Source: an uncultured SAR86 cluster bacterium (GTDB taxonomy: Bacteria; Pseudomonadota; Gammaproteobacteria; Magnimaribacterales; D2472). From it: a stretch of DNA of 64,000 nucleotides. Location of the stretch: positions 22,794-86,793 of the forward strand of contig CACLBJ010000002.1 in NCBI GenBank assembly GCA_902605165.1. The letters run 5' to 3'. Below the pieces are notes generated by a model. That model did no database searches and was not told where the DNA came from. It saw only the letters and a list, made by a program, of their open reading frames with translations. The position numbers were made by a program, and so were the translations under genes. Positions 4,570 through 61,983 of this stretch are shown here, piece by piece (within the stretch, counting starts at the first letter, position 1; each line of letters opens with the position of its first letter).

Positions 4570-4646
4570 GCGCCTGTAGCTCAGCTGGATAGAGTACTTG
4601 GCTTCGAACCAAGGGGTCGGGAGTTCGAATCTTCCCGGGCGCGCCA
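4570..4646 (+). tRNA. tRNA-Arg (anticodon TCG)
   Basis: GCGCCTGTAGCTCAGCTGGATAGAGTACTTGGCTTCGAACCAAGGGGTCGGGAGTTCGAATCTTCCCGGGCGCGCCA. It folds as a cloverleaf by hand with anticodon loop CTTCGAA, T-loop TTCGAAT and an encoded CCA. Confidence 0.95.
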
Positions 4647-4691: not shown

Positions 4692-5810
4692 TTGTTATTA
4701 GTTTTCTATTTTAGAAAAACTATTCTTTTTTGGATTATTGGTCGAATGATTAAGCCGACTATGACCTTTGATACCTTTGAGCCACCTCCTAAACCAAATT
4801 ATAATGATCTTAACTCATGGGCAGCTCATCCTGATTACAAAAATGGGCCAGATCAACTCACACCTAATAATGAAAATTTAAATGGTTTAAAAGAAGCTGC
4901 TGTATTTTACGTACATCCAACTGGTTATTTCGGAAAAACATGGAATGCAACAATTGATAAAGATACGTCTCACTATGAAAGAACTGAAGGTATGTTAGCT
5001 GGTCAAGCTTCAGCTTTTAACAATAGTTGCGATATTTATGCTCCTGAATATAGACAGGCAACATTCTTTTCTTTTTTTGATGAAACTGGAGATGGACAAA
5101 AGGCTTTAGCGCGAGCCTATGAAGATGTAGAAAGTGCTTTTTTTGCATTTTTAGATTTAATTGGTGATAAACCTTTTTTTATAGCATCTCATAGCCAAGG
5201 AACACTTCATGCCCAACAGCTGATCTCTAAACATATAGATGGAGCAAAACTCTCTCAAAGAATGATTGCAGCTTATTTGATTGGTTATCCAATTCTTAAA
5301 AGTGACATTAAAAAGCTTTTTAAAGAGATTGAGATATGCAAAAGTCCAGAACAAATTAACTGTGTTATTGCTTGGTGTACAGTAGATGAAATGGCAAATC
5401 TGGAGGGTGAAAGCTGGACTTGGGATCCAAGTGGTTGGAAGAGATTAAATAGAGATGACTTCTTATTTGGAACCAATCCTATTAGCTGGACTATAGACAA
5501 TGAATGGATATCAACAAAAAAAATCAATTCTGTTCTAAATCTTGATATTTGGGATCAATCAATTAAGGGCCTTACAAAAAAAAGACCGTCTGGAGAACCT
5601 ATACAAATATCCTTGTTTAAAAATGCTAATTTCCATGTCCGTCTAAGCAAAAAAGGTCTAGCGGAAGTTAAAGGTGATTTTTTAAAAAGATTTGATTCAG
5701 TGGAGTTTGGTTTAGGCAATCTGCATGTTGTTGACTATAGTTTATTCTGGGGGTCAATTCGTAAGAATGTTAAATTACGATTAAATGAATATTTAAAAAC
5801 AGCAAACTAA
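4692..5810 (+). CDS. DUF3089-like alpha/beta hydrolase-fold protein
   Basis: 372 aa. FIASHSQGTLH is a GxSxG-type nucleophile elbow (HSQG) as in DUF3089 proteins. The start is uncertain: TTG at 4692, ATG at 4746, or an in-frame ATT at 4662 placed 5 nt after a strong GGGAGG at 4651-4656. Confidence 0.55.
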   Translation: MLLVFYFRKTILFWIIGRMIKPTMTFDTFEPPPKPNYNDLNSWAAHPDYKNGPDQLTPNNENLNGLKEAAVFYVHPTGYFGKTWNATIDKDTSHYERTEGMLAGQASAFNNSCDIYAPEYRQATFFSFFDETGDGQKALARAYEDVESAFFAFLDLIGDKPFFIASHSQGTLHAQQLISKHIDGAKLSQRMIAAYLIGYPILKSDIKKLFKEIEICKSPEQINCVIAWCTVDEMANLEGESWTWDPSGWKRLNRDDFLFGTNPISWTIDNEWISTKKINSVLNLDIWDQSIKGLTKKRPSGEPIQISLFKNANFHVRLSKKGLAEVKGDFLKRFDSVEFGLGNLHVVDYSLFWGSIRKNVKLRLNEYLKTAN

Positions 5811-6175
5811 ATTACCTCAATTTGTCCACCATTCTCAACCCACTCTTTGAAACCACCTAAATTAAATACATCTTTATATCCTATGTCCATAAGCGTTTTT
5901 GCAGCCAATGCTGCGCGTGCGCCAGCAGCACAATAAATTAGAATTTTCATTTTTTCTGAATCCTCAACATGATCCTCTGGCCTGAAAATAAATTCCAGTA
6001 ATCCTCTAGGTACATGAATAGCCCCTTTAATTTTTCCAGACTCCCTAAGCTCTTGCCCTTCTCTTACATCTAAAATTATTGTATTTGCATCATTCAGAAT
6101 AGCGCTAGCTTCTTCAAAACTAATTCTTGGAACTAACTCATTTGCTTCATTTAAAAGTTGATTAATATTAGTCAT
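5807..6175 (-). CDS. Single-domain rhodanese-like sulfurtransferase
   Basis: 122 aa with the active-site loop YCAAGARAALAA (CxxGxR). Size and layout are typical of rhodanese/GlpE-like proteins. It overlaps the EamA stop by 8 nt. Confidence 0.8.
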   Translation of the reverse strand: MTNINQLLNEANELVPRISFEEASAILNDANTIILDVREGQELRESGKIKGAIHVPRGLLEFIFRPEDHVEDSEKMKILIYCAAGARAALAAKTLMDIGYKDVFNLGGFKEWVENGGQIEVI

Positions 6176-7019
6176 ATCGCTTATTTGTAAAAATTATTCC
6201 AGTTAATATTAATATCATACCTATTAAAATTTGTAATGTAATTTGCTCTCCAAGAAAAACATAACCCCAGATCACTCCAAAAATAGGTATGAAATATGCA
6301 ACAGTTGCGGTCTTAACTGCACCAACTTTTTCAATTAAGCGAACGTAACCAAGAAAAGCAATGCCTGTTGAAATTACTCCAAGCCAAAGGATTGAGAAAA
6401 TAGTATTATTGGAGGGAAATTGTGAAGGCAAGTTAAAGATGGTCAGCGGTAGAAGGAAAATTGATGCCAGTACTAGAGACCAACCTATTAAGACAATTGT
6501 GTTTGTCTTATATGCAAATTTCTGAATATAGTTTGCAGACAATGCATAACAAAATGCTGCACTTAAACAAAAGATAGTAGCCTTGGTTGAAATATAAATA
6601 TTATCGGGATTTGCTAAAACTACAATACCGAATAAACCAATAAATACTCCCATTATCTGAAAGCGATTTAGCTTTACTTTTAACCAAATTGTAGAAATTA
6701 CAACAGCCATAATTGCAGTTGTCCCATTGAGAATTGACAACATGTTTGAACTTGATTCAAGTGAAGCATATGCAAATAGTGAAAAAGGCAATGCGGTATT
6801 TACAATGCTAAGCACCAAAATATTTTTTAAATTGCTCCTAAAATGCTTTAAATATTTTTTTTGAAGGAGAAAAGGAGTAAATATGAGGCCAGCAACTGCA
6901 AGTCTTATATTAACTAGCGCAATTGGACCTAGCTCAGGTGTTGCAATTTTAATAAACATAAAAGCGCTGCCCCAAACTGCTCCAAGGATAGTAATAAGAA
7001 TCCAGTATTTATTTTCCAT
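6168..7019 (-). CDS. EamA/DMT-family transporter
   Basis: 283 aa and ~10 TM helices. The N-terminal ILGAVWGSAFMFIKIA and the two-repeat architecture are typical of EamA domains. Confidence 0.8.
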   Translation of the reverse strand: MENKYWILITILGAVWGSAFMFIKIATPELGPIALVNIRLAVAGLIFTPFLLQKKYLKHFRSNLKNILVLSIVNTALPFSLFAYASLESSSNMLSILNGTTAIMAVVISTIWLKVKLNRFQIMGVFIGLFGIVVLANPDNIYISTKATIFCLSAAFCYALSANYIQKFAYKTNTIVLIGWSLVLASIFLLPLTIFNLPSQFPSNNTIFSILWLGVISTGIAFLGYVRLIEKVGAVKTATVAYFIPIFGVIWGYVFLGEQITLQILIGMILILTGIIFTNKRYD

Positions 7020-7027
7020 GATAAATT

Positions 7028-7055
7028 AAAAAAAGCCCCCTTAAAAAAGAGGGCT
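7028..7055 (-). terminator. Rho-independent terminator-like hairpin ending 8 nt upstream of the EamA start codon
   Basis: Minus strand reads AGCCCUC-UUUUUUAA-GGGGGCU followed by a U7 run. The stem is 7 bp with one G-U pair. It is followed by AAUUUAUC and then AUG (7019). Confidence 0.6.
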
Positions 7056-7218
7056 AAAATCTGAATATAATCAGACGAAATCAGAATCTAACTTCTGTCA
7101 AAAAGCTGTACCTCCGATTCCTGAATTAAATATAATATTGATAGGACCACCTCCTTGTGAGGGTAATATTAAATACTATAAAGCGGCCCCCATATTAACC
7201 GCGACATAGCGACATCCA
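7028..7218 (-). ncRNA. Candidate ~190-nt structured leader (riboswitch/attenuator) or small RNA; class not recognised
   Basis: Bounded by a promoter-like TTAACA-16nt-TATAAT (7252-7225) and the terminator at 7028-7055. No ATG on the plus strand and no ORF over ~20 codons on either strand. Hairpins CAGAA/TTCTG (7097-7082) and TCUGA/UCAGA (7075-7060) precede the terminator. Confidence 0.3.
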
Positions 7219-7224
7219 GTTTTT

Positions 7225-7252
7225 ATTATATACAGCAAATAGATTTTGTTAA
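7225..7252 (-). promoter_or_regulatory. Sigma70-like promoter (TTAACA -35, 16-nt spacer, TATAAT -10)
   Basis: Read on the minus strand directly after the stop of the 70-aa ORF. AT-rich DNA makes chance hexamers common, so this is tentative. Confidence 0.35.
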
Positions 7253-7260
7253 CAGCTAAA

Positions 7261-7473
7261 TTATAATAATTCTAATTGTTGACAATTGGCAAAACAGAAT
7301 GTGTTTTTAACTGTGGAAATACTATCTCTTGGGAACAAGTAGTTGTTTAGATCTTCTTTGTTTCCATTGAAGTATTTAAAAGCAAGAGTCTTTTCAGCCG
7401 ACTCTTTGTCTACAGCCTCTTCCCACTGGGAGATAATAGTATCTTGGAAATTTAAATTTATTACGTTACTCAT
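7261..7473 (-). CDS. Hypothetical 70-aa protein, predicted LexA-regulated and leaderless
   Basis: A 70-codon open frame in AT-rich DNA, where stop triplets are frequent. No family recognised. The protein is acidic, not hydrophobic, and ends with CFANC. The ATG lies 6 nt after the -10 of a LexA-box promoter and has no SD. Confidence 0.5.
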   Translation of the reverse strand: MSNVINLNFQDTIISQWEEAVDKESAEKTLAFKYFNGNKEDLNNYLFPRDSISTVKNTFCFANCQQLELL

Positions 7474-7479
7474 ATATCA

Positions 7480-7508
7480 AATATACTGTATATTTATACA
7501 GTAGTCAA
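7480..7508 (-). promoter_or_regulatory. Sigma70-like promoter containing the LexA box (TTGACT -35, 17-nt spacer, TATATT -10)
   Basis: Minus strand reads TTGACT-ACTGTATAAATATACAG-TATATT-tgatat-ATG. The operator occupies the whole spacer, and the predicted +1 coincides with the A of the start codon at 7473. Confidence 0.6.
7484..7503 (-). promoter_or_regulatory. LexA (SOS) box
   Basis: TACTGTATATTTATACAGTA matches 19/20 positions of the gammaproteobacterial consensus TACTGTATATATATACAGTA (CTGT-N8-ACAG). Confidence 0.8.
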
Positions 7509-7512
7509 ATAT

Positions 7513-7947
7513 TTATGAGCTGAAGAGATTTTCCATATCCTTAAATGCCTTAATTTCAATAGCATTACCCGATGGATCTCTAAAGAACATTGTCCTTTGT
7601 TCTCCAACTTCTCCTTTAAATCTGATAGTTGGTTCAATGATAAAATCTATTTCTTTATCATTTATTTTCAATAAAAATTCTTCAAATTCTTCTATGGACA
7701 GAACTACTCCAAAATGTGGGACTGGAACCTCTTCACCATCTACAGGATTGGTGATTTGCTCATTGATGCTATCTGAGACGTGACATACGAGCTGATGACC
7801 AAAAAAATCAAAATCTGCCCATTTGTTTGAACTCCTTCCCTCTTTAAGGCCAAGAATATCTCTATAGTAAATGACTGATTTCTCTAAATTAGATACCGGT
7901 ATTGCAAGATGGAATGGGTTTAAATTATCTTTCACGAAAGAAGGCAA
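7513..7947 (-). CDS. VOC (glyoxalase/bleomycin-resistance/dioxygenase) family protein
   Basis: 144 aa. FHLAIPVSNLEKSVIYYRDILGLKEG and the C-terminal FFRDPSGNAIEIK are typical VOC beta-alpha-beta-beta-beta module motifs. Confidence 0.75.
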   Translation of the reverse strand: MPSFVKDNLNPFHLAIPVSNLEKSVIYYRDILGLKEGRSSNKWADFDFFGHQLVCHVSDSINEQITNPVDGEEVPVPHFGVVLSIEEFEEFLLKINDKEIDFIIEPTIRFKGEVGEQRTMFFRDPSGNAIEIKAFKDMENLFSS

Positions 7948-8530
7948 ATATCATAAAAGATAATGTAAATATGGTAACAAGAGTTCCGAGAATATCTCCA
8001 ACAAAAAATCTAATAAACATCTCTGGATTTGATGAAATAGCTCTAAGGGAGTTATAAACATAAAGAGATAAAGAATGCACTGCAGCACTAAAAACGGTAA
8101 CCATTATTATATGTTTATGATTTCTTAAATCTAAATATATAGAATCTTTTGTAAACTTATAAAAAGGTAGAGTTTTTAATTTAAATCCTAATCCAGCCAT
8201 TGCGTAAAGAGCAATAAAAACACAGATAGTTGATAAGAAAGATGTGCCAAGTAAGTCTATAAGTAGCAGATTATTCAATCCATATGCGTCTCCAATAACA
8301 AAGGTGCAAAAGACATGGGCTGCAAAAAGTGCAGGTATGGCTGCAATACCAAAATAACAAATTGTGATCACCCTTGCTGCATGAGGTACATACATGATGC
8401 TGCCATTAAAGCCAGAGGCGGTTTCAGAACTAATGATAAAAAAGATCCAAATTACATATAAAAGATTAAATGATACAAAGGTAGTAATTGATACTTCTAA
8501 AAAATATTTTAGGTCACTGACAGGATTCAA
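7925..8530 (-). CDS. Hypothetical polytopic membrane protein (~6 TM)
   Basis: 201 aa and strongly hydrophobic, with no recognised family. It has a TTG start at 8530, 1 nt after the wHTH gene stop; the start is uncertain. Confidence 0.45.
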   Translation of the reverse strand: MNPVSDLKYFLEVSITTFVSFNLLYVIWIFFIISSETASGFNGSIMYVPHAARVITICYFGIAAIPALFAAHVFCTFVIGDAYGLNNLLLIDLLGTSFLSTICVFIALYAMAGLGFKLKTLPFYKFTKDSIYLDLRNHKHIIMVTVFSAAVHSLSLYVYNSLRAISSNPEMFIRFFVGDILGTLVTIFTLSFMIFAFFRER

Positions 8531-8531
8531 A

Positions 8532-8810
8532 TCAGACCTTTAGTGAAACAATTGATTCACGTTTATCTGACTCTGATTGAAATGCCTCAATAAGATTACT
8601 ATCTTCAAGCTTTCTTAGAATCTTATAAACAGTTGATCTTGATAAACCTGATTCATCTACAATCTTTGAAATGTTACATACATCATTTGATTTCAAAATA
8701 GTATAAAAAACTGCTTGTTCGTTTGGTGTTAGCGAATGCAACTTAAACTCATCCTCAATGTTTCTTAACATTTGAACGAATGTTGTAAGCTGTTTTTTAA
8801 AATCAGGCAT
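8532..8810 (-). CDS. Small winged-helix (MarR/PadR-like) DNA-binding protein, 92 aa
   Basis: ISKIVDESGLSRSTVYKILRKLEDSNLIE is a clear HTH followed by a wing. I start it at ATG 8810 (MPDFKK) because the longer track ORF (to 8945) runs into the tRNA-Ser gene. Confidence 0.6.
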   Translation of the reverse strand: MPDFKKQLTTFVQMLRNIEDEFKLHSLTPNEQAVFYTILKSNDVCNISKIVDESGLSRSTVYKILRKLEDSNLIEAFQSESDKRESIVSLKV

Positions 8811-8861
8811 TTTGTTTCCCTTTATGTCTATATTTTGAACAAAAAAAGTAAAAAATTCAAA

Positions 8862-8951
8862 TGGCGGAGAGACAGGGATTCGAACCCTGGATACGGTTGC
8901 CCATATACTACCTTTCCAAGGTAGCGCGATCGACCACTCTGCCACCTCTCC
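8862..8951 (-). tRNA. tRNA-Ser (anticodon GGA)
   Basis: The reverse complement reads GGAGAGGTGGCAGAGTGGTCGATCGCGCTACCTTGGAAAGGTAGTATATGGGCAACCGTATCCAGGGTTCGAATCCCTGTCTCTCCGCCA. It has a long variable arm, anticodon loop TTGGAAA and an encoded CCA. Confidence 0.95.
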
Positions 8952-8966
8952 AATGGCATAATTTTA

Positions 8967-9452
8967 CTACAAGTTATTATTCTTTATCCAAATGAATTGA
9001 TAAATCAAAGTAATGAAATAAATTATTACAAAAGCAATATGGAAATATAAGATTATTGGATCAAATAAAGAATCAGCAAGAGGTTTACCCACTGGCAATC
9101 TTCTTAAAGTGTCTGCAGCTGCAGGCAAACTATGGAATAAAAAAGTTGAAGTAAAGCATAAAGTATAAAAGTACGTTGAGAAATAGCCCAATATTCTAGT
9201 TCTCTCAACATATACCCCACACAGAACAGCCAGCACAGCTAACACCCCCATAACATGTGCGATACCAAATCCACCTTGGTTATAAATGCCTAAAGCAGAT
9301 ACTGCAGTTATGAATGTTAAAACTAAATATATCCTTGATGGGATTTTATTCCAAGAAAGCAATTTAAAAGAAAAGAAAGAGAAGAAACCTAACAATATTG
9401 AGGCTATTCCTAGAACAGTATGAAACCATCCAAGTAGAGTAATATCAGGCAT
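8967..9452 (-). CDS. Hypothetical membrane protein (~5 TM)
   Basis: 161 aa, hydrophobic, family not recognised. It lies 9 nt downstream of the MerR-family gene and is probably in the same operon. Confidence 0.45.
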   Translation of the reverse strand: MPDITLLGWFHTVLGIASILLGFFSFFSFKLLSWNKIPSRIYLVLTFITAVSALGIYNQGGFGIAHVMGVLAVLAVLCGVYVERTRILGYFSTYFYTLCFTSTFLFHSLPAAADTLRRLPVGKPLADSLFDPIILYFHIAFVIIYFITLIYQFIWIKNNNL

Positions 9453-36535: not shown

Positions 36536-38614
36536 ATGGATAATACGTTTACTGTTTTAAAAAATGTTAATTTTGGTCTAAAAGGCCTTGTTTTTAGCTT
36601 ATTTATAGCTTTTTCAACTATTTCAGTCGCTGATGAATATAAACCAATACCCCTTGATAAGTTGGTATGTTACGGACAAGGCACACAACAACAATTATCA
36701 CCTTCTGGAGAGTTTCTAGCAGCAATGGTCCCAGTTGATGAAAATGTTTGCGATATTAAGGATGAAACTGATCAAGAAATGATGGCAACTGATAGAGTTC
36801 TTGTTGTTACAAATCTTGAAACAATGGAAGCTAAAGTAATCTCAGGAACAACTCCTGGAAGCGCTGTTACAAGCTTCAGATGGTTGGACAATGAAAAGCT
36901 TTTAGTTTCAAGGGATTCAAGAGCTGGGTTTGATTCTGCAAGCATGTATACCGTTGATAAGGATGGCAAAAATACTACGCTTTTAATTAAAGCAAAAGCA
37001 TTTAGAAATAAACCAGGCTATCAAATACCAAGCTTGTATGGCATATATCCAAGAGTCCCTGGCAAGGTAATGATTAGCTTGTTTAATACTGGCAGCAGAT
37101 CAAGAGATTTATATTGGCTTGACCTAAAGACTAAAAGAACTGAACTTGTTGCCAGAGAGCCTTCTGTTCCTGGCGAACTTGTAACAGGTTGGTTGCTAGA
37201 CTGGGAAGGAGTCCCATATGGGTTTGAAACTTTTATGGAAGAAGGACCTAATAAAGGTATAGAAACAACTTTTTATAGATTTACTGATAATGGTGAATAT
37301 GAAAAAGTTAATTCGTGCATGCATCAAGCTGCTTGCTTCTTTCCACAAAGCTTTGATATAGACAACAAATCTCTTTTAGGTGTTGGTCAAGCAGTATCTC
37401 CAAATGGAACTATAAAAAATGAAACTGATACAAATGCCTTGTGGGCTGTTGATGCAGAAACAGGAGAATATCTGGAAATGATCTACCACGATCCTGATTA
37501 TGATTTATCAAGTCCCATGCATGGAATGAATTCAATGAGTATGTGGTTTTCATCAGATGGATATGATCTCTATGGATTCTCTTATGAGGGAGCTAAGACA
37601 GAAAAAGTTTACTTTGATGAATATTTTGCATCCGTAGATAAGTCGTTGGAAGGTATTTTTCCTGACCATGAAGTAAGAATAAGAGATTGGAGTGATGATT
37701 TAACAAGATTTTTATTTAGTGTTTCAAGCGACAAGGATCCTGGAAGTACATATCTTTTTGATCTTTCAAAAGGAAAAGTATCACTAATATCCGAATCAGC
37801 ACCATGGATAAAAAACTATCAATTAGCCACTATGGAGCCCTTTACATATATGAGCAGAGACGGAATTAAGTTACATGGCTATATTACTTTGCCTCCAACC
37901 TATAAAGAAGGAGATAAAATTCCATTTATTATCCACCCGCATGGTGGCCCTAATGCCAGAGATTATTGGGGATATAACCCTGAGGTTCAATTCTATGCAA
38001 CTCGTGGTTATGGAGTTATACAAATGGACTATAGAGGCTCAACAGGTTATGGAAGAGAAGAAATGATCCTTGCTAATCACCAAATGGGTAAAAAGATGCA
38101 AGAAGATAAATATGATGCTCTGATGTGGGCAAATGAACAAGGTTATGTTGACATGGATAATGTTTGTATTTCTGGAGCATCCTATGGAGGGTATGCTGCA
38201 ATGCAGGCAGCCACTAAAAATCCTGAGCTTTTTAAGTGTATTATTGCTTATGTTGGTGTTTACGATTTAACAAGCATGGATTTAAGAGGTCTCAGGTGGA
38301 GTGATTTGGGAATGCCAATGGAATACATTGAAAAAGGTGATCCTAGAGATCCGGATGACTATAAGAATCTTTATGAAAATAGCCCATTATTCTTTGCTCA
38401 AAATGTTGAAGATCCTATTTTAATTATTACAGGAAGGCGAGATAACCAAGTAAGGTTCCAAGAAACAGTGGATATGGTTAACGAACTAAAGAAATATAAT
38501 AAAGATTACAAATATATAATTAAAGGAGATGAGGGGCACGGCTTTAGGAATGAAACAGCTAACCTCGAACTTTATGAAGATTATGAGGAGTTCTTAGGAG
38601 AACACCTTAATTAG
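36536..38614 (+). CDS. S9 family serine peptidase (prolyl oligopeptidase/dipeptidyl peptidase-like), exported
   Basis: Signal peptide and an N-terminal beta-propeller-like region. The C-terminal catalytic domain has [11 protein letters not shown] (GxSxGG), RRDNQV and GDEGHGF. Confidence 0.85.
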
Positions 38615-39774
38615 AAACTTGAAATATTAGTTTGTTTTTGACCAAGTATGAGGGCATGAATATCACTTGTGCCCTCGTAAGTATTAACTGCCTCCAAATT
38701 CATTGAGTGCCTCACAACGTGATACTCATCACTAATTCCGTTTCCACCATGAATATCTCTTGCTGACCTGGCAATCTCAAGAGCTTTTTGACAATTATTC
38801 CTTTTTATAAGCGAGATCATCTCAGGAACAAAATTATCTTCGTCAATCAACCTGCCTACTCTTAAGGCAGCCTGCATACCTAATGAAATTTCAGTTTGCA
38901 TATCAGCAAGCTTTTTCTGAATAAGTTGTTTAGATGCTAAGGGTGAATTAAATTGATTTCTATCAAGAGTGTATTCAAGTGATTTCTCCCAGCAGAATTC
39001 AGCGGCTCCCATTACTCCCCAAGCAATTCCATATCTCGCAGAATTAAGACAAGTAAATGGGCCCTTAAAACTTTGCACCTCAGGAAGCACCTTATCTTCG
39101 GAAACAAATACTTGATCCATAAATATCATCCCAGTCGCAGATGCGCGCAATGCAAATTTACCATCCAAATAAGGAGTCTCTAATCCCTTAGCCTCCTCTC
39201 TTTCTAAAATAAATCCTCTCAAGACACCCTGCTCATCTTTTGCCCATATAATAAATAAGTCAGCTATTGGAGAATTTGTTATCCAAGTCTTAGATCCGGT
39301 TAGTTCGAATCCTCCATCTACTTTTTTTGCAACTGATTTCATGCCAGCAGGATCTGATCCAGCATCTGGTTCGGTAAGACCAAAGCATCCAATAATTTTT
39401 CCTTTAGCCATTTCAGGGAGGTAATGCTCTTTCTGCTCTTCTGAACCAAACTTATAAATTGCATACATCGCCAGTGAAGACTGCACACTAAAAGCTGATC
39501 TATAGCTAGAATCAACTCTTTCAATCTCTCTAGCAATTAAGCCATAAGCAACATTACTAACTCCAGAACAGCCATACCCTTTTATATGTGGCCCAAGCAA
39601 TCCAAGCTCTGCAAGCTCTTTATAAATTTCTTTATCAAAAAGCTCTTCTCTATTAGCTTTTTGAATTCTTGGCATAAGAGATTTATCACAATAATCTCTT
39701 ACACTTTTTTGAATAGCAAGCTCCTCCTCAGTAAGCTGCTGATCAAAAAGAAGTAAGTCTGGAAGTTTGCTCAT
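38611..39774 (-). CDS. gcdH: Acyl-CoA dehydrogenase, glutaryl-CoA dehydrogenase-like
   Basis: 387 aa. [12 protein letters not shown], the TWITNSP-like segment ([11 protein letters not shown]) and [13 protein letters not shown] resemble GCDH. The substrate assignment is tentative. Confidence 0.7.
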
Positions 39775-40022: not shown

Positions 40023-40042
40023 AAAACCATTATAATTTGCTT

Positions 40043-40630
40043 ATGGCCAAGGTTCACTTTTTTTACTCAACCATGAATGCTGGTAAATCTACTGCATTGC
40101 TGCAGTCTGCTCACAACTATCATGAAACCGGAAACGAAACAATTTTATTTATTCCAAGAGAAGATGCTGACAAGAATTCGGGATTAATCAAATCAAGAAT
40201 TGGATTAAGCGCTACAGCGGTAGTAATTAATTCAGAGCTAAAAATCTACGAATATGTAAAAAAAGAACTTTCACAAAGAAAGGTTGATGCAATCCTTGTT
40301 GACGAAGCTCAATTTTTAAAGAAGCATCATGTTTTGCAAATGTGCAAAGTATGTGATGAATTAGAAATTCCAGTAATGTGCTATGGCATAAGAACAGATT
40401 TTAGAGGAGAGTTATTTGAAGGTAGTGCAACACTGCTTGCGTTAGCAGATAACCTAATCGAGCTCAAAACGGTTTGTAATGTTTGCAGTAGAAAGGCAAC
40501 AATGGTTGTAAGGCTAGACGAGAACGGAAAGGTTATCACTAAAGGTTCAAAAGTTCAGATTGGCGGCAATGATGTATATAGAGTCTTATGCAGAAAGCAC
40601 TTTAATGAAGCTACAAAACTACTAGATTGA
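40043..40630 (+). CDS. tdk: Thymidine kinase
   Basis: MAKVHFFYSTMNAGKST aligns with the E. coli Tdk N-terminus (MAQLYFYYSAMNAGKS). VDEAQF and a C-terminal Zn ribbon (CNVCSRKA..VLCRKH) are present. I chose the ATG at 40043 rather than TTG 40037. Confidence 0.9.
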   Translation: MAKVHFFYSTMNAGKSTALLQSAHNYHETGNETILFIPREDADKNSGLIKSRIGLSATAVVINSELKIYEYVKKELSQRKVDAILVDEAQFLKKHHVLQMCKVCDELEIPVMCYGIRTDFRGELFEGSATLLALADNLIELKTVCNVCSRKATMVVRLDENGKVITKGSKVQIGGNDVYRVLCRKHFNEATKLLD

Positions 40631-40638
40631 AACCTTTT

Positions 40639-41415
40639 TCAAGACCACATACTTGCGCCACCGCAAATTGTTAAAGCTTGGCCTGTCATAAAAGAACTTT
40701 CATCCGAAGCAAGAAAAACTGCAACACCTTTAAAATCATCTGCTTCACCAAGTCTTCTTAATGGCATTCTCTGACTTGAAGCTTTTTCAGCTTCTGGGTT
40801 TTCCCATAAAAGTTTTGAAAAATCTGTTTTAACTAGGCCTGGGCAAATTGCATTAACTCTTATGTTTGATGGACCTAATTCAGAAGCATAGTTTCTTACT
40901 AAACCCAAAACAGCAAGCTTTGAAATACTATATGTCCCCAAAGTTTCTGAGGCATGGAATGCAGCAATGCTTGAAGTAATCATGATTGATCCACCGCCAG
41001 ATTCTTTCATAGAAGGTGTAACCATATTTATTAACCAATGATTAGACTTAACATTTGTATCCATGGTTTTATCATATGATTCATCATCTATTTCCGACAT
41101 TGATCCAAAAAATGAATTTACTCCAGCATTACATACCAAAGTTGAGATAGACCCAAGCTTAGATATTGAAAAATCTACAAGATCTTGTAATTGATCTTTG
41201 CTTGATGCATTGCATGCGAAAGCAAATGCTTTTTGATGACCAATGGATTCGTTTATAGCATTTGCAGCTTCTTCACATTGGTCAAGTTTCCTGCTAGATA
41301 TAACAACATTAGCACCATGATTAACTAAACCTTCAGCCATAGCTAGCCCCATTCCTTTAGAAGCACCTGTAAGCAAAACATTCTTATTTTGAAGGTCAAA
41401 AAGTTTTTTAGACAT
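40639..41415 (-). CDS. SDR family oxidoreductase
   Basis: TGASKGMGLAMA, NAGV and YSISKLAV (YxxxK). 258 aa. Confidence 0.85.
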   Translation of the reverse strand: MSKKLFDLQNKNVLLTGASKGMGLAMAEGLVNHGANVVISSRKLDQCEEAANAINESIGHQKAFAFACNASSKDQLQDLVDFSISKLGSISTLVCNAGVNSFFGSMSEIDDESYDKTMDTNVKSNHWLINMVTPSMKESGGGSIMITSSIAAFHASETLGTYSISKLAVLGLVRNYASELGPSNIRVNAICPGLVKTDFSKLLWENPEAEKASSQRMPLRRLGEADDFKGVAVFLASDESSFMTGQALTICGGASMWS

Positions 41416-42327: not shown

Positions 42328-43278
42328 TTAATTTTGACAATTATTTTCTTGATAAAGGTTTAAGATTGCTTCTCTTTCATCAGAGTCAAGGCTAAGCCTA
42401 AATTCAGATTTTATATTGAGCCATTTATTTAAATATTCACAGTAGTAAGAGGAGTTGTTTGGCATCCAATCTGATGGGTCTGATGAGCCCTTGCTTGCAT
42501 TAGATGAACCCCCGACTGCAATTAAGAGATCATCAAAATCAATATTATTAGCAAACTTTAATTTTCTTGAAGCCGGGAAGCTCCATGCTCCACTTTTATG
42601 AGCCTCAAATAGAGCAACAACATGGTCTATTTGCACTTCTGAAGAAGAAAAATAATAAAGGTTGTCATAGGGATCAAACCATTTCCCAGAATTAACAAAA
42701 CATCCATCTGAAGAAAAAACTAAGGGATGATTGGAATCGTCATCAATATGCTCAGATTCAAGCACTTCATGCCTATTACTCTGACAATCACCATCCCAAT
42801 CTTGCCATGTTGGATAATCATTTGATCTATCATATTCAACAGTTGTATTTTCCTCTTCAAAACAAACTGTTTTGCCTAAAAAACTATCTGAACAAACTCT
42901 CAATAGAAAAACTGAAAGTGTTTGAGTAATTGAAACAATATTATCAGTAACATTAATCAAAATTGAGAACTCATTCTTATCAAAATAGCTGGGGGGCTGA
43001 TTAAAGGTAATTACTCCTTCATTGGTTATAGAAAAATAGGAAGGGTCATTCCCTGAGAGGCTATATTGAAGTATATCTCCATCATTGTCACTAGCAGAAA
43101 TGGTAGCAACAGATAATTGCATTTCATCAACCTCAACCTCACCAATAGTGTTTTGAAAAAAGGGAGAGGTATTTGAAATCTGAGGCGTTGCATCTGATCC
43201 GCTTCCGCCACCACAAGAGTAAATAAAACTAATTGTAACAATAAATGGAAATATTGATCTCAAGACAAAATATTTCAT
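42328..43278 (-). CDS. Lipoprotein: cadherin-like repeat fused to a DUF1524 (His-Me/HNH-type) nuclease domain
   Basis: The preferred start MKYFVLRSIFPFIVTISFIYSCGGGSGS (ATG 43278) removes the overlap with the divergent SDR gene. Cadherin-like segment: ISASDNDGDILQYSLSGNDPSYFSITNEGVITF...ILINVTDN. DUF1524 core: VQIDHVVALFEAHKSGAW...FANN..DLLIAVGGSSNASKGSSDPSDWMP. Confidence 0.7.
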   Translation of the reverse strand: MKYFVLRSIFPFIVTISFIYSCGGGSGSDATPQISNTSPFFQNTIGEVEVDEMQLSVATISASDNDGDILQYSLSGNDPSYFSITNEGVITFNQPPSYFDKNEFSILINVTDNIVSITQTLSVFLLRVCSDSFLGKTVCFEEENTTVEYDRSNDYPTWQDWDGDCQSNRHEVLESEHIDDDSNHPLVFSSDGCFVNSGKWFDPYDNLYYFSSSEVQIDHVVALFEAHKSGAWSFPASRKLKFANNIDFDDLLIAVGGSSNASKGSSDPSDWMPNNSSYYCEYLNKWLNIKSEFRLSLDSDEREAILNLYQENNCQN

Positions 43279-43312
43279 AAAAAAGATTATAATCCCAATT
43301 AAAAAGATTAAG

Positions 43313-44062
43313 ATGAAAAAAGCATTAATCACAGGAGCTTCCTCAGGAATTGGTTTTGAATATGCAAAGCATTTAGACCAAAATGGTTGGTCTTTAGATT
43401 TAGTTTCCTATAGCGAAGATAGATCAAGAATAGCAAGAGAATCTTTCCAAGATAGTAACAATAATTATTATCATCTAGACCTTTCAAGAAAAGACTCTGT
43501 TCTGGAGTTACTTGAAAAAGTAGATTGTCCAGATCTTGTTGTTGCTAATGCCGGCATTACAATGGTGAGCAAGGCTGGTGAGAGCTCATCATTGCAAAGA
43601 GATGATTTGTATTATCTTTTATGTGGAGGAGTGATTGATTTAATTGAGGGGTTACTACCGAGGTTAAGAGAAAAAGATACTTCAAGGATCGTTATCATCT
43701 CAAGTATTGGAGCAGTTACTCCAATGCCTAAATCTTCATTATATGCATCCGCAAAATCTGGTATTTACGCATATGGAAGATCAATTGGTGAGGAGCTGGC
43801 AAATGAGAAAATTTCTGTAACTATATCACTCCCGGGATATGTCAAAACTAATGCTCATAAAAGGGCTGGTCTTGATCATCTTGAAAAGAAAATCCCTTTT
43901 TGGATGTGGGTATCTGCTGAGAAGGTTGTAAGGATGACTGAAAAAGCTTCTTTGGCTGGAAAGAGTACAGTTATTCCTGGTTTAGCTTATAAGCTAGTGA
44001 AACCATTTCTAGGTTTGGACATTACCTCAAAGTTATGGAAAATTTTGAATAAAAGAAACTAG
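43313..44062 (+). CDS. SDR family oxidoreductase
   Basis: TGASSGIGFEYA, NAGI and YASAKSGI (YxxxK). 249 aa. Confidence 0.8.
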   Translation: MKKALITGASSGIGFEYAKHLDQNGWSLDLVSYSEDRSRIARESFQDSNNNYYHLDLSRKDSVLELLEKVDCPDLVVANAGITMVSKAGESSSLQRDDLYYLLCGGVIDLIEGLLPRLREKDTSRIVIISSIGAVTPMPKSSLYASAKSGIYAYGRSIGEELANEKISVTISLPGYVKTNAHKRAGLDHLEKKIPFWMWVSAEKVVRMTEKASLAGKSTVIPGLAYKLVKPFLGLDITSKLWKILNKRN

Positions 44063-56309: not shown

Positions 56310-57737
56310 ATGGCATTAAAGAAGAGAGGCTTTTGGATAGGAGTACTTCTATTTTTTGGGATTATTTTTCTTCCTTCTCCATCTGGTTTAACTGAAAGTG
56401 CTTGGCTAGTTGCAGCTGTTGCACTTCTTATGGTTACATGGTGGGCGACTGAAGCAATTCCCATACCCGTCACTTCTCTTTTACCACTGGCTCTTTTCCC
56501 AATACTTGGAGTAACTTCAATAGAAACAGCTGCCCTTCCTTATGCAAATAAAAATATTTATCTTTTTCTTGGTGGTTTTTTAATTGCTTTGTCAATTGAA
56601 AGATCAGGACTTCATAAACGCCTTGCATTGTTAATGATAAGAAGTCTTGGATCAGATGGTCCAAAGCTAATAGGAGGCTTTATGCTTGTCTCAGCATTAA
56701 TAAGTATGTGGGTAATGAATACATCAACTACATTGATGCTTTTACCCATTGGGCTTGCGATATGTTCAGTGGTAGCCAAAACCGTTCCAAATATGTCTGA
56801 AAAAGACAAAGATAATTTTGATAAAGCGCTATTACTTTCAATCGCATATGCTGCAACTATAGGAGGAATGTCTACACTTGTTGGTACAGCACCTAACATT
56901 GTTTTTAGCTCTTTTATGCTGGAAGTCTATGGTCTGGATATTTCTATGATTGACTGGATGAAGTTAGGTGTTCCAGTTTCAGTTTGTATGCTTGCTTTAG
57001 CATGGTTAATTCTTACAAAAGTTGTTTATCCTGTTAATTTTGCTTCATCAGATGAAACAAAGAATACTCTTTCAAAAATGTTGGCTGATATGGGTCCTAT
57101 GTCTAAAGATGAATTTAGAGTCGGAATAGTCTTCTTCATCGCAGCAGGTTTATGGATGTTTAGAAGCCTTATTGATAACTACGTAATTGGTCTCACCGAT
57201 GCTGGCATAGCAATCCTTGTTGCAATTGCTTTATTTATAATTCCATCTAGCGGAAGAAATGGAGAATTACTTTCATGGGAGCAATCAAGCAAACTACCAT
57301 GGGGTTTATTACTTCTTTTTGGTGGAGGTTTATCGCTTGGTGTACAAATTAATGACACCGGTTTGGGCCTTTGGATAGGTCAAAGCCTGGTAAGCCTTAA
57401 AACAGTTCCACTAATAATGCTTGTAATGGCGGTTGCAGCGCTAATAATATTTTTGACAGAAGTGACTAGCAATGTCGCAACAACATCAACTTTCTTGCCA
57501 GTTTTTGGAGCAGTTGCAGTTGCTGTTGGTGTTGCTCCAGAAGTCTTAACTGTTCCAGTTGTTCTCGCTGCAAGCTGCGCGTTTATGTTGCCAGTAGCTA
57601 CTCCCCCAAATGCAATTGTATATGGAGCCAATAAATTTAAAATTATTGATATGATGCGAGCGGGATTCTTAATTAATGTAGCTGGTATTTTTGTAGTAAC
57701 AGTTTTTGCTTACTACTTTGCGAAAGTTATTTTTTAA
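56310..57737 (+). CDS. DASS/SLC13-family sodium-coupled anion (di/tricarboxylate or sulfate) symporter
   Basis: 475 aa and polytopic. Two SNT-type hairpin motifs are present (NTSTTLMLLPI and TSNVATTSTFLPV), as in DASS transporters. Confidence 0.75.
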   Translation: MALKKRGFWIGVLLFFGIIFLPSPSGLTESAWLVAAVALLMVTWWATEAIPIPVTSLLPLALFPILGVTSIETAALPYANKNIYLFLGGFLIALSIERSGLHKRLALLMIRSLGSDGPKLIGGFMLVSALISMWVMNTSTTLMLLPIGLAICSVVAKTVPNMSEKDKDNFDKALLLSIAYAATIGGMSTLVGTAPNIVFSSFMLEVYGLDISMIDWMKLGVPVSVCMLALAWLILTKVVYPVNFASSDETKNTLSKMLADMGPMSKDEFRVGIVFFIAAGLWMFRSLIDNYVIGLTDAGIAILVAIALFIIPSSGRNGELLSWEQSSKLPWGLLLLFGGGLSLGVQINDTGLGLWIGQSLVSLKTVPLIMLVMAVAALIIFLTEVTSNVATTSTFLPVFGAVAVAVGVAPEVLTVPVVLAASCAFMLPVATPPNAIVYGANKFKIIDMMRAGFLINVAGIFVVTVFAYYFAKVIF

Positions 57738-60836: not shown

Positions 60837-61550
60837 TTAAGAATTCCATAATGTTTTTTTACCAATCTTTTCTTCAATCTCTTCAAGCCTTTTGGAATGC
60901 AAAAGTTGATCCTCTTCAGAAGTAATAATCTTAGTAATTTCAAAATCATTTGAAAGATTTCTTGTTTGCTTTTTATTATCCTCCTGAAGATCAGCATCAA
61001 AATCATTTGCGAAATTAATCTTGCTTTGACCGCCTGTAAGGTTTGAATAAACATCAGCTAATATATTGGCATCGAGTAAGGCTCCGTGATAAGTCCTATC
61101 ATAGCCATTAATATCAAAACGTTTTGATAGCGCATCAAGGGAATTCCTCTGTCCTGGAAACTTATTTCTAGCAATTGCGAGTGTATCTTTAACTTCACAA
61201 ATCTCAGATATTGTTGGATAAGTTGATGATGCTATTTTAAATTCAGCATCTAAAAAACCAACATCAAAGTCTGCATTATGAATTACCAGTGTTGAGCCAT
61301 CGATAAACTCTAAAAGATCTTCTGCAATCTCAGAAAAAAGAGGTTTATCTTGAACGTCTTCATTAGATATCCCATGAACTTCTTGAGCTTCTTTATCAAT
61401 TTCTCTTTGTGGATTGACATAAACATGAAATGTTTCGGTAGTTTTTTTCCTACCATTCATTACTACTCCGCCTATCTCAATTATTCTATGTCCTTTTTCT
61501 ACCTCCAAACCAGTAGTTTCTGTATCGAGTACTATATGTCTTTTTTCCAT
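60837..61550 (-). CDS. dnaQ: DNA polymerase III epsilon subunit (3'-5' exonuclease)
   Basis: Exo I IVLDTETTGL, Exo II LVIHNADFDVGFL, Exo III YHGALLDANILADVY. 237 aa. Confidence 0.9.
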   Translation of the reverse strand: MEKRHIVLDTETTGLEVEKGHRIIEIGGVVMNGRKKTTETFHVYVNPQREIDKEAQEVHGISNEDVQDKPLFSEIAEDLLEFIDGSTLVIHNADFDVGFLDAEFKIASSTYPTISEICEVKDTLAIARNKFPGQRNSLDALSKRFDINGYDRTYHGALLDANILADVYSNLTGGQSKINFANDFDADLQEDNKKQTRNLSNDFEITKIITSEEDQLLHSKRLEEIEEKIGKKTLWNS

Positions 61551-61551
61551 T

Positions 61552-61983
61552 TTAAAGTTCGTCTATGCCTCTATTTGCAAGCATGTCTGCAGTTTCATTT
61601 CCTGGATCACCTGAATGACCCTTGACCCAGTTCCATTTTATATTATGTTTATCTCTAAGTTCATCTAATTCTTTCCAAAGATCAATATTTTTTACTGGTT
61701 TCTTGTTTGCGCCTCTCCAGCCTCTTTTTTTCCAGTTATGTATCCACTCTTCAATGCCCTGAAGAACATATTTTGAATCTGTGTAAAGGATGATTTCGCA
61801 AGGTTCTTTTATTTCTTTAAGAGCCATAATCGCTGCTGTTAGCTCCATCTTATTATTAGTAGTAGAAACATCTCCTCCATAAAGCTGCTTACTTAATTCG
61901 CCATATTCAATAAGTACTCCCCAACCACCAGGTCCTGGATTGCCTCTACAAGCTCCATCAGTGTAAATAATTACAGTTTTCAT
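61552..61983 (-). CDS. rnhA: Ribonuclease HI
   Basis: [34 protein letters not shown] and VKGHSG..GNETAD. 143 aa. Confidence 0.95.

Follow-up and report, generated by a model that had tools for sequence, protein, structure and literature searches.

A small SAR86 gene with a LexA-type operator, a predicted near-leaderless promoter and a candidate beta-clamp-binding C-terminus

Which gene does the SOS box in this stretch of SAR86 DNA control, and what could its product do after DNA damage? The stretch comprises 64,000 nucleotides (nt) of an uncultured SAR86 cluster bacterium (assembly GCA_902605165.1, contig CACLBJ010000002.1, positions 22,794 to 86,793 of the forward strand) and is referred to below as the window. 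A reading made from the letters alone, here called the original prediction, had placed a near-consensus LexA box inside the promoter of a 70-codon open reading frame (ORF) on the minus strand, and had proposed that the ORF encodes a leaderless, SOS-controlled orphan protein. We found that box and ORF are retained together in every related locus for which upstream sequence is available, that the protein is under strong purifying selection, and that it ends in a conserved peptide resembling the motif used by ligands of the beta sliding clamp (DnaN). Taken together, the locus may represent a LexA-repressed gene with a near-leaderless mRNA, whose product is a small SOS effector that docks onto the clamp; for this combination as a whole we consider the chances evenly balanced.

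The elements of the operator, the promoter and the ORF are the following, in window coordinates:

7503-7508, minus strand: -35 hexamer TTGACT, read from the sequence; its last base opens the 20-mer SOS box
7486-7502, minus strand: 17-nt promoter spacer ACTGTATAAATATACAG, read from the sequence
7480-7485, minus strand: -10 hexamer TATATT, beginning directly after ACAG and ending 6 nt short of the ATG
7484-7503, no strand assigned: predicted LexA (SOS) box, plus-strand 20-mer TACTGTATATTTATACAGTA, from consensus match and conservation
7486-7501: core of the SOS box, CTGT-N8-ACAG, inside the 20-mer
7471-7473, minus strand: ATG start codon, also the predicted transcription start from promoter geometry
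7261-7473, minus strand: coding sequence of the small SOS protein of SAR86, an ORF of 70 amino acids (aa) plus the stop codon TAA at 7261-7263

On the minus strand the window sequence reads TTGACT - ACTGTATAAATATACAG - TATATT - tgatat - ATG, and this layout agrees exactly with the original prediction. The predicted LexA box occupies the promoter spacer and overlaps both the -35 and the -10 hexamer. The consensus sequence used for comparison, TACTGTATATATATACAGTA, is the E. coli-type or gammaproteobacterial SOS box with the core CTGT-N8-ACAG. The 20-mer at 7484-7503 was found to agree with it at 19 of 20 positions, as had been claimed, and contains a single mismatch. No other site in the window lies within three mismatches of the SOS consensus, and none of 100 dinucleotide shuffles of the window yielded one. 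The bare 16-mer CTGT-N8-ACAG is not significant alone, as 0.58 occurrences are expected per window and at least one was present in 45 of 100 shuffles. The significance of the box is therefore due to the full 20-mer match and to its conservation, not to the core. The promoter is a prediction; it scored 10 of 12 in a consensus promoter scan with a spacer of 17 nt, in agreement with the earlier description of good hexamers separated by a spacer that the box fills.

Related loci were taken from 7 SAR86 genomes, 3 more divergent loci and a metagenome scan that added 80 loci. Upstream sequence is present in 89 loci, 84 of them non-identical, while the three loci without a box are cut by contig ends. 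CTGT-N8-ACAG was found directly 5' of the ORF in all 89. The SAR86 genomes carry the box before the ORF at an equal distance to the ATG (7/7), including three members that are only 47-52% identical and have unrelated upstream genes. The arrangement of box and ORF was likewise present in the three more divergent members (30-37% identity), two of which have other downstream genes. Co-conservation extends to loci of 30-40% protein identity whose flanking genes differ, and both elements are kept where the gene downstream differs (loci L010, L011, L051, L057/58, L068 and L088). Operator and ORF are a unit that was retained together while its neighbours changed.

Within the 84 non-identical loci neither arm of the box, TACTGTA or TACAGTA, ever changes, and variation is confined to the centre, where ATAAAT, ATATTT, ATATAT, ACATAC and other sequences were observed. 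Invariant arms combined with a drifting AT-rich centre are the pattern expected of a LexA operator. A hexamer of the type TTGnnT or TTnnnT is found at the place of the -35 in all clades, and the hexamer directly after ACAG is TATATT (43 loci), TATAAT (19 loci) or another TAnnnT. The distance from ACAG to the ATG is 12 nt (54 loci), 13 nt (20 loci) or 14 nt (8 loci) in 82 of the 84 loci. The two exceptions are L051, in which the ATG lies 8 nt past the box, and L087, in which a second in-frame ATG gives 13 nt; in L010, where a contig end cuts the upstream sequence, the ATG lies 5 nt past the box. In the 259 kb of related DNA the box core occurs only twice more, once in L009, as a tandem-duplicated box that precedes a truncated ORF copy, and once as a GC-centred chance match inside a gene.

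The duplication in L009 (L009:400-4240) comprises a block of DUF885, glyoxalase and SnoaL genes. A second, identical predicted LexA box lies at position 1385 and is followed by the truncated copy of the small ORF, MNNLIHLNPIDPIFNEYEAFVDKGF and a stop codon. Two other contigs break exactly at the ATG or within the palindrome, at the end of contig CESP01028257.1 (L033) and at the start of the L010 contig. These ends probably reflect assembly breakage at the inverted repeat and do not point to a transcript end.

In Gamma- and Betaproteobacteria the LexA motif is CTGT-N8-ACAG. From the operator and its conservation we consider it very probable that the gene is under LexA control. A palindrome could also be bound by another dimeric regulator, and SAR86 may lack LexA, in which case the gene would not respond to damage. 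This would fit with the finding that the 64-kb window contains no other SOS gene or SOS box, and a literature search for the SAR86 SOS regulon returned nothing directly relevant. We nevertheless regard a regulator other than LexA as very improbable. SAR86 is a gammaproteobacterial lineage, the sites agree with the LexA consensus of Gammaproteobacteria at 19-20 of 20 positions, and the CTGT/ACAG arms with their TA flanks are unchanged in the 84 non-identical loci while the AT-rich centre drifts.

We then asked whether the ORF behind the predicted LexA promoter is a gene. Pooled Nei-Gojobori estimates for 38 non-identical close relatives gave a dS of 0.89, a dN of 0.083 and a dN/dS of 0.094. In the same set the number of variable columns at codon positions 1, 2 and 3 was 31, 26 and 61, and the remaining five frames were full of stops. 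The reading frame is thus conserved under strong purifying selection, which bears out the claim that 70 open codons were unlikely to have arisen by chance. That the ORF is a real protein-coding gene is, on these comparisons, virtually certain. An in-frame TGA is located two codons 5' of the ATG, and the start can therefore not lie further upstream.

The protein belongs to a family of nearly constant length (about 70-78 aa). A single-sequence search returned 84 clusters, an iterated profile 863 clusters at 90% identity, and a profile search among 1.84 billion representatives 47 clusters at 50% identity. In a collection of species-representative genomes all 7 matches are SAR86-cluster bacteria, and so far as found the family is confined to SAR86 genomes and to similar AT-rich marine contigs. 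Where the source gives family members a descriptive name, it is "hypothetical protein". The label "orphan" in the original prediction did not stand, as this is a SAR86-wide family, albeit one without named relatives.

The stated lack of likeness to known SOS proteins did stand. No Pfam match was found for the window protein at E <= 0.1, no recurring Pfam family for 28 diverse members at E <= 10, and no match in NCBIfam or PHROG. The profiles of DinI (PF06183), YebG (PF07130), SulA (PF03846) and Mor/MuC (PF02316) did not match the protein either. A profile search against the sequences of the Protein Data Bank (PDB) gave an uncharacterised protein as its best match (E 0.063), and searches with predicted structures, described below, gave no significant match. 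The product is acidic and not hydrophobic, as had been claimed, with an isoelectric point of 4.49, a grand average of hydropathy (GRAVY) of -0.41, a maximum 19-residue Kyte-Doolittle mean of 0.47 and no hydrophobic segment. A type I toxin of the TisB or DinQ type was rejected on this hydropathy. A phage origin was rejected as well, there being no PHROG match and no family member encoded by any of 120 viral contigs that carry the exact box; these contigs show only that the box is common in phages.

The position of the promoter raises the question of where the mRNA starts. The original prediction had the -10 ending 6 nt before the ATG. This was found in the window, and 82 of the 84 non-identical loci have a TAnnnT -10 that ends 6-8 nt short of the ATG. 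With the -10 assumed to occupy positions -12 to -7, +1 would coincide with the A of the AUG at a gap of 6 nt, whereas a gap of 7-8 nt would give a leader of 1-2 nt. The transcription start is thus predicted at the seventh base after the -10, with a leader of 0-2 nt, and from this geometry a leader of 2 nt or less is likely. The conserved spacing between -10 and ATG is the best argument for a leaderless or near-leaderless mRNA. An ATG opens the family ORF in all 89 loci, although the search required an ATG, and 6-8 nt leave no room for a Shine-Dalgarno (SD) sequence. The absence of an SD had been correctly noted for this gene. It is not distinctive, since an SD-like motif was found in only 17 of 56 window genes, and its lack in the other 39 makes it uninformative.

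A similar layout was found elsewhere in the window. In 6 of 56 genes the start codon follows a near-consensus -10 at a gap of 6-8 nt, and in four of these six the gap is exactly 6 nt, compared to about 0.7 genes per position elsewhere, although the numbers are small. Such starts are seen, for example, at 8967-9452 (minus), 38611-39774 (minus), 40037-40630 (plus), 40639-41415 (minus), 42328-43332 (minus) and 56310-57737 (plus). In SAR86, leaderless mRNAs and initiation independent of an SD may thus be common; our literature search on leaderless genes in SAR86 found nothing directly relevant.

The mRNA could instead carry a leader, arising mainly by read-through from the VOC/glyoxalase gene upstream or from another upstream start and being translated without an SD, as most SAR86 genes appear to be. 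In that case the LexA box would be a roadblock or govern a minor promoter only. SD-less initiation on leadered mRNAs must be routine where so few genes have an SD-like motif, no terminator separates the upstream gene from the box, and the standard geometry does not fit L051 and L010, whose ATGs are too near the box. Such an origin would leave unaccounted for why the series of -35, 17 nt, -10, 6-8 nt and ATG is kept in 82 of 84 loci despite upstream genes that differ or are divergently oriented, with the ATG of the family ORF just 3' of the box in all box-carrying loci (the ATG being a requirement of the search). Several other window genes, moreover, share the layout with a peak at the 6-nt gap. 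We therefore regard a leadered mRNA as improbable, and the near-leaderless start as the better reading of the promoter.

Three parts of the protein were distinguished:

7336-7473, minus strand: residues 1-46, conserved three-helix N-terminal domain (AlphaFold2 predicted local distance difference test, pLDDT, about 77-84; dN/dS 0.056)
7294-7335, minus strand: residues 47-60, variable linker, predicted to be disordered (pLDDT 44-53; dN/dS 0.21)
7264-7278, minus strand: residues 66-70, QLELL-COOH, candidate beta-clamp-binding motif (fit to Q-phi-x-[L/M]-[F/L])

Two AlphaFold2 runs, with alignments of 14 and 28 sequences, predicted helices at about residues 5/9-19, 23-35 and 39-46 and a tail of low confidence. 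The conserved residues of the N-terminal domain are D11, I13, D22, K23, K28, A31, F32, Y34, F35 and Y45. Across 25-28 diverse members only A31 and Q66 are invariant, together with Y45 in one alignment, and E68 is nearly so. The linker differs in both length and sequence between clades, and following it the dN/dS falls again, to 0.066 for residues 61-70.

The C-terminal peptide is a conserved motif that the original prediction overlooked, and it is the source of a concrete hypothesis. Within an otherwise hypervariable tail Q66 is invariant, and it belongs to the last five or six residues. The window clade ends in QLELL, and other family members end in QLEFSF, QLELSF, QLEFTF, QLAMF, QLELI, QLELF(H/S), QPELI, QPELL(H) or QPELSF. 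The canonical clamp-binding motifs are Q-phi-x-[L/M]-[F/L] and Q-phi-x-[L/M]-x-[F/L], in which the Gln is the main determinant of affinity, position 3 is free and Ile is tolerated as the last residue (PMC11139829). Clamp-binding motifs are often located in a disordered C-terminal tail (PMC11139829), and in the SAR86 protein the motif is terminal and follows a variable linker of low pLDDT. The strict definition fits the window protein and, in total, 39 of 75 distinct family proteins; a near-canonical match, in which position 4 may be Phe, position 2 Pro and the last residue Ile, was found in 73 of 75. Among the 96 window ORFs of at least 50 aa only the small SOS ORF carries such a motif in its last nine residues. 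On this pattern we are slightly inclined to believe that the conserved C-terminus binds the beta clamp.

The window also encodes a DnaQ protein, the homologue of the epsilon subunit of DNA polymerase III (Pol III), at 60837-61550 (minus). It contains QSKINF at the place of the E. coli epsilon clamp-binding motif, which is QTSMAF (PMC11139829). This suggests that the usual mode of clamp docking operates in the organism from which the window derives. The dnaQ gene adjoins rnhA (61552-61983).

The C-terminal peptide could serve another end. It may be a degradation tag, recognised by Lon or ClpXP, or a docking peptide for a different partner, with the three-helix domain of a LexA-controlled protein acting on another target such as RecA, LexA, FtsZ or DNA. 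Hydrophobic C-termini are typical of degrons, and SOS effectors are often unstable, as with SulA and Lon or UmuD and ClpXP. Two further features of the family are in line with such a role: a variant that lacks the tail (L052 and L053), and the C-termini QLEFSF and QPEL-, which depart from the strict clamp definition. For an action on another target, the N-terminal domain has weak fold matches (all E > 0.5) to DNA-binding three-helix modules resembling helix-turn-helix (HTH) domains. An invariant Gln followed by an aliphatic residue, x, L/F/M and L/F/I is, on the other hand, the signature of clamp ligands and of no known degron, more than half of the family proteins (39/75, the window protein among them) fit even the strict definition, and in its place behind a disordered linker the motif resembles those of DNA polymerases II and IV (Pol II and Pol IV). 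A degron or a different docking partner is in our view rather unlikely, and clamp binding is the preferred reading of the tail.

With LexA control, a near-leaderless start and clamp docking combined, the gene would work as follows. In the undamaged cell a LexA dimer would be bound to the near-perfect palindrome and exclude RNA polymerase from a strong sigma-70 promoter. DNA damage would lead to RecA-stimulated cleavage of LexA and free the promoter. Transcription would start at, or no more than 2 nt from, the A of the AUG, and the resulting leaderless or near-leaderless mRNA would give a burst of an acidic 8-kDa protein. Its Q-L-x-L-L/F peptide would most likely enter the hydrophobic cleft of the beta clamp, the site that is also used by Pol III and the SOS polymerases. 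Two outcomes can be envisaged. The protein may compete with Pol III, Hda and other clamp clients and so slow replication or change the access of polymerases in a checkpoint-like manner, or the peptide may tether the helical domain to clamps left at damaged DNA. Competition of the first kind has precedents in SocB (PMC9690074) and in over-produced MuC (PMC12867686), both compared with the SAR86 protein below. The near-perfect box predicts tight repression and induction only upon substantial damage, an expectation based on how the strength of LexA boxes relates to repression in E. coli.

Several observations weigh against this combined reading. None of lexA, recA and dnaN is located within the 64-kb window. 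The terminator scan found no terminator between the stop of the upstream gene (7513) and the box, and leadered read-through transcripts are therefore possible. The geometry differs in the sub-clade of L051 and L010, where only 8 or 5 nt separate the box from the ATG. A 45-aa variant that ends in SEIGNF and lacks both linker and C-terminal motif is encoded behind box and promoter on two independent contigs (L052 and L053, 1487-1650 in each), so that the N-terminal domain can exist alone; in L062 a stop codon is located within the linker, which does not fit either. Phe occupies position 4 in the largest distant clade (QLEFSF) and Pro position 2 in another (QPEL-), and both are therefore only near-canonical; a clamp-binding motif is, moreover, a short linear motif. 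Foldseek searches of the two AlphaFold models against the PDB and BFVD gave only matches with E > 0.5, to generic three-helix or HTH-like modules and to the N-terminal region of GyrA/ParC.

Downstream of the small gene we identified a second conserved element, a structured RNA, and the surroundings on both sides are the following:

7028-7256, minus strand: structured RNA of riboswitch-like layout, flanked by the SOS gene and the EamA gene
7225-7252, minus strand: promoter of the RNA element, TTAACA, 16 nt, TATAAT (promoter scan 11/12)
7087-7221, minus strand: conserved core of the RNA, about 130 nt
7028-7055, minus strand: intrinsic terminator with its stem at 7034-7055 and a T-run (terminator scan, Rfam terminator-like alignment and minimum free energy fold)
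6168-7019, minus strand: EamA-family (DMT) transporter gene, 3' of the RNA element
5807-6175, minus strand: rhodanese gene, after the EamA gene
7513-7947, minus strand: gene for a VOC/glyoxalase or FosA-like protein, upstream of the SOS ORF
7925-8530, minus strand: 200-aa multi-pass membrane protein without a Pfam match
8532-8945, minus strand: ORF for a MarR-type regulator

The core of the RNA contains the invariant blocks UAAGGGGA, UACCCU, GGAGGUGRUCYUAU, CAGGAA.CGGAGG and CCUUUUGACA, and its terminator (7034-7055) lies about 15 nt before the ATG of the EamA gene. Rfam 15 gave no match at gathering thresholds or at E <= 10 other than terminator-like sRNA noise. In a single-clade alignment with a hand-drawn hairpin, double compensatory changes were seen in 7 of the 11 pairs of that hairpin and pairing in 97% of cells, compared to 34-50% paired for slid controls of the tested structure as a whole. 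RNAalifold applied to a mixed-clade MAFFT alignment gave a poor consensus in which the variable hairpin is mis-registered between clades. The RNA element is a separate finding and a candidate for a new class of cis-regulatory RNA.

The terminator scan found no terminator between 7261 and 7203, directly after the ORF, and the SOS transcript must therefore run into the RNA element. The terminator at 7034-7055 is the first 3' of the ORF and is likely to form the 3' end of the SOS transcript. This arrangement raises the question of whether the small ORF is itself regulatory, being a leader ORF or the first cistron of a unit of RNA, EamA and rhodanese genes at which SOS control is aimed. The RNA element and the EamA gene are found 3' of the ORF in 64 of 71 loci, with no terminator in between, and an efflux transporter is part of an SOS operon in E. 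coli (lexA-dinF). Strong purifying selection on the protein, in a pattern specific to its domains, speaks against such a role, and the RNA has a conserved promoter of its own. In the remaining 7 of 71 loci box and ORF are present without RNA or EamA downstream, from which it follows that the small gene is not merely a leader of the RNA. We consider a leader or regulatory ORF extremely improbable compared to a gene whose protein is the target of SOS control. A leader peptide for EamA was rejected on the dN/dS and on the loci that lack EamA.

The genes for the MarR-type regulator, membrane protein, VOC/FosA-like protein, SOS ORF, RNA element, EamA transporter and rhodanese form a conserved block (5807-8945, minus strand) that is also present in L008 and L011. 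A tRNA-Ser(GGA) at 8862-8951 (minus) overlaps the 5' part of the MarR-like ORF. The real start of this gene is probably an internal ATG (MPDFKKQ...), since this fits the 95-96-aa orthologues in L008 and L011. A tRNA-Arg(TCG) at 4570-4646 (plus) is overlapped by a spurious 43-aa ORF.

The inferences that the original prediction had drawn at the level of the sequence, the orphan label apart, held up, and the comparative data strengthen them. LexA regulons have been mapped mainly in cultured model bacteria, whereas SAR86 is an uncultured, globally abundant lineage that ranks with the most numerous heterotrophs of surface seawater; within 64 kb of its DNA, the strongest SOS operator guards a family without a name in the databases. 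If the tail binds the clamp, the protein would be a minimal damage-induced clamp ligand by which a streamlined genome couples damage to replication control or polymerase traffic, and its peptide a natural lead for clamp inhibition. We tentatively propose, while leaning against it on balance, that SAR86 uses an unrecognised type of SOS effector, a leaderless, LexA-repressed 8-kDa clamp-docker that restrains or redirects replication after damage such as that by UV. The proposal can be tested without a culture of SAR86. The box fits the E. coli LexA consensus, so that binding by E. coli LexA is expected, and clamp-binding motifs are broadly cross-reactive, which makes tests outside SAR86 feasible.

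Compared to known systems, the operator is of a familiar kind. In gammaproteobacterial LexA promoters such as those of sulA, umuDC and recN in E. coli, a 20-bp TACTGT-N8-ACAGTA lies over the -35 and -10 of a sigma-70 promoter, as does the SAR86 site. The SAR86 promoter differs in that it abuts the start codon, a leaderless layout that we do not know from any E. coli SOS gene, and its product is unrelated to the SOS proteins described. DinI, YebG, SulA, TisB, DinQ and SymE are likewise short LexA-controlled effectors, whereas the SAR86 protein has no match in Pfam or NCBIfam. Leaderless mRNAs are known from lambda cI transcribed from PRM and are common in Actinobacteria and Deinococcus. The SAR86 gene resembles them in a -10 that ends about 6-7 nt before the AUG and in the lack of an SD, with its start predicted from geometry only. 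As the layout occurs in about 10% of window genes, it appears to be a habit of the genome and not special to the SOS gene.

For the tail the closest likeness is to the LexA-controlled polymerases Pol II and Pol IV, whose flexible C-terminal tails end in a clamp peptide of the QLxLF/QLxLxL type (PMC11139829). SOS functions thus already converge on the clamp cleft. The SAR86 protein shares with them the predicted LexA control and a C-terminal peptide of the clamp type, but it has 70 aa, no catalytic domain and no homology to either polymerase, and would serve purely as a ligand or adaptor of the clamp. SocB, the toxin of the Caulobacter SocAB system, is also small and non-enzymatic, and it blocks replication elongation by occupying the clamp cleft through a clamp-binding motif (PMC9690074). 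SocB belongs to a toxin-antitoxin pair and is controlled by ClpXP proteolysis, whereas the SAR86 gene has a LexA box and no partner gene, and the two proteins have no sequence similarity (no shared Pfam family). MuC, the C protein of phage Mu from the Mor/MuC family, needs clamp motifs and in excess disturbs replication control by competition for the clamp (PMC12867686). It resembles the SAR86 protein in being a small helical protein of DNA-binding type with near-consensus clamp motifs at its termini, but MuC is encoded by a phage, is about twice as large and has a proven role as a transcription factor, and the SAR86 protein has no Mor-family match.

A small, non-enzymatic, LexA-controlled protein that binds the clamp was not found described in the literature searched. 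If the combined reading of the SAR86 gene is true, its product would be the first member of a LexA regulon other than a polymerase to act through the clamp, and a bacterial counterpart of the p21-PCNA checkpoint. In that system p21(CIP1), a small damage-induced protein, binds PCNA by a C-terminal PIP box that starts with Gln and restrains replication. The analogy is functional only, as p21 belongs to another domain of life, is p53-dependent and uses a different clamp and a different motif, with no homology to the SAR86 protein. Altogether, the regulatory logic, which is that of classical promoter occlusion by LexA, and the type of motif are familiar, while the protein family and the combination are new.

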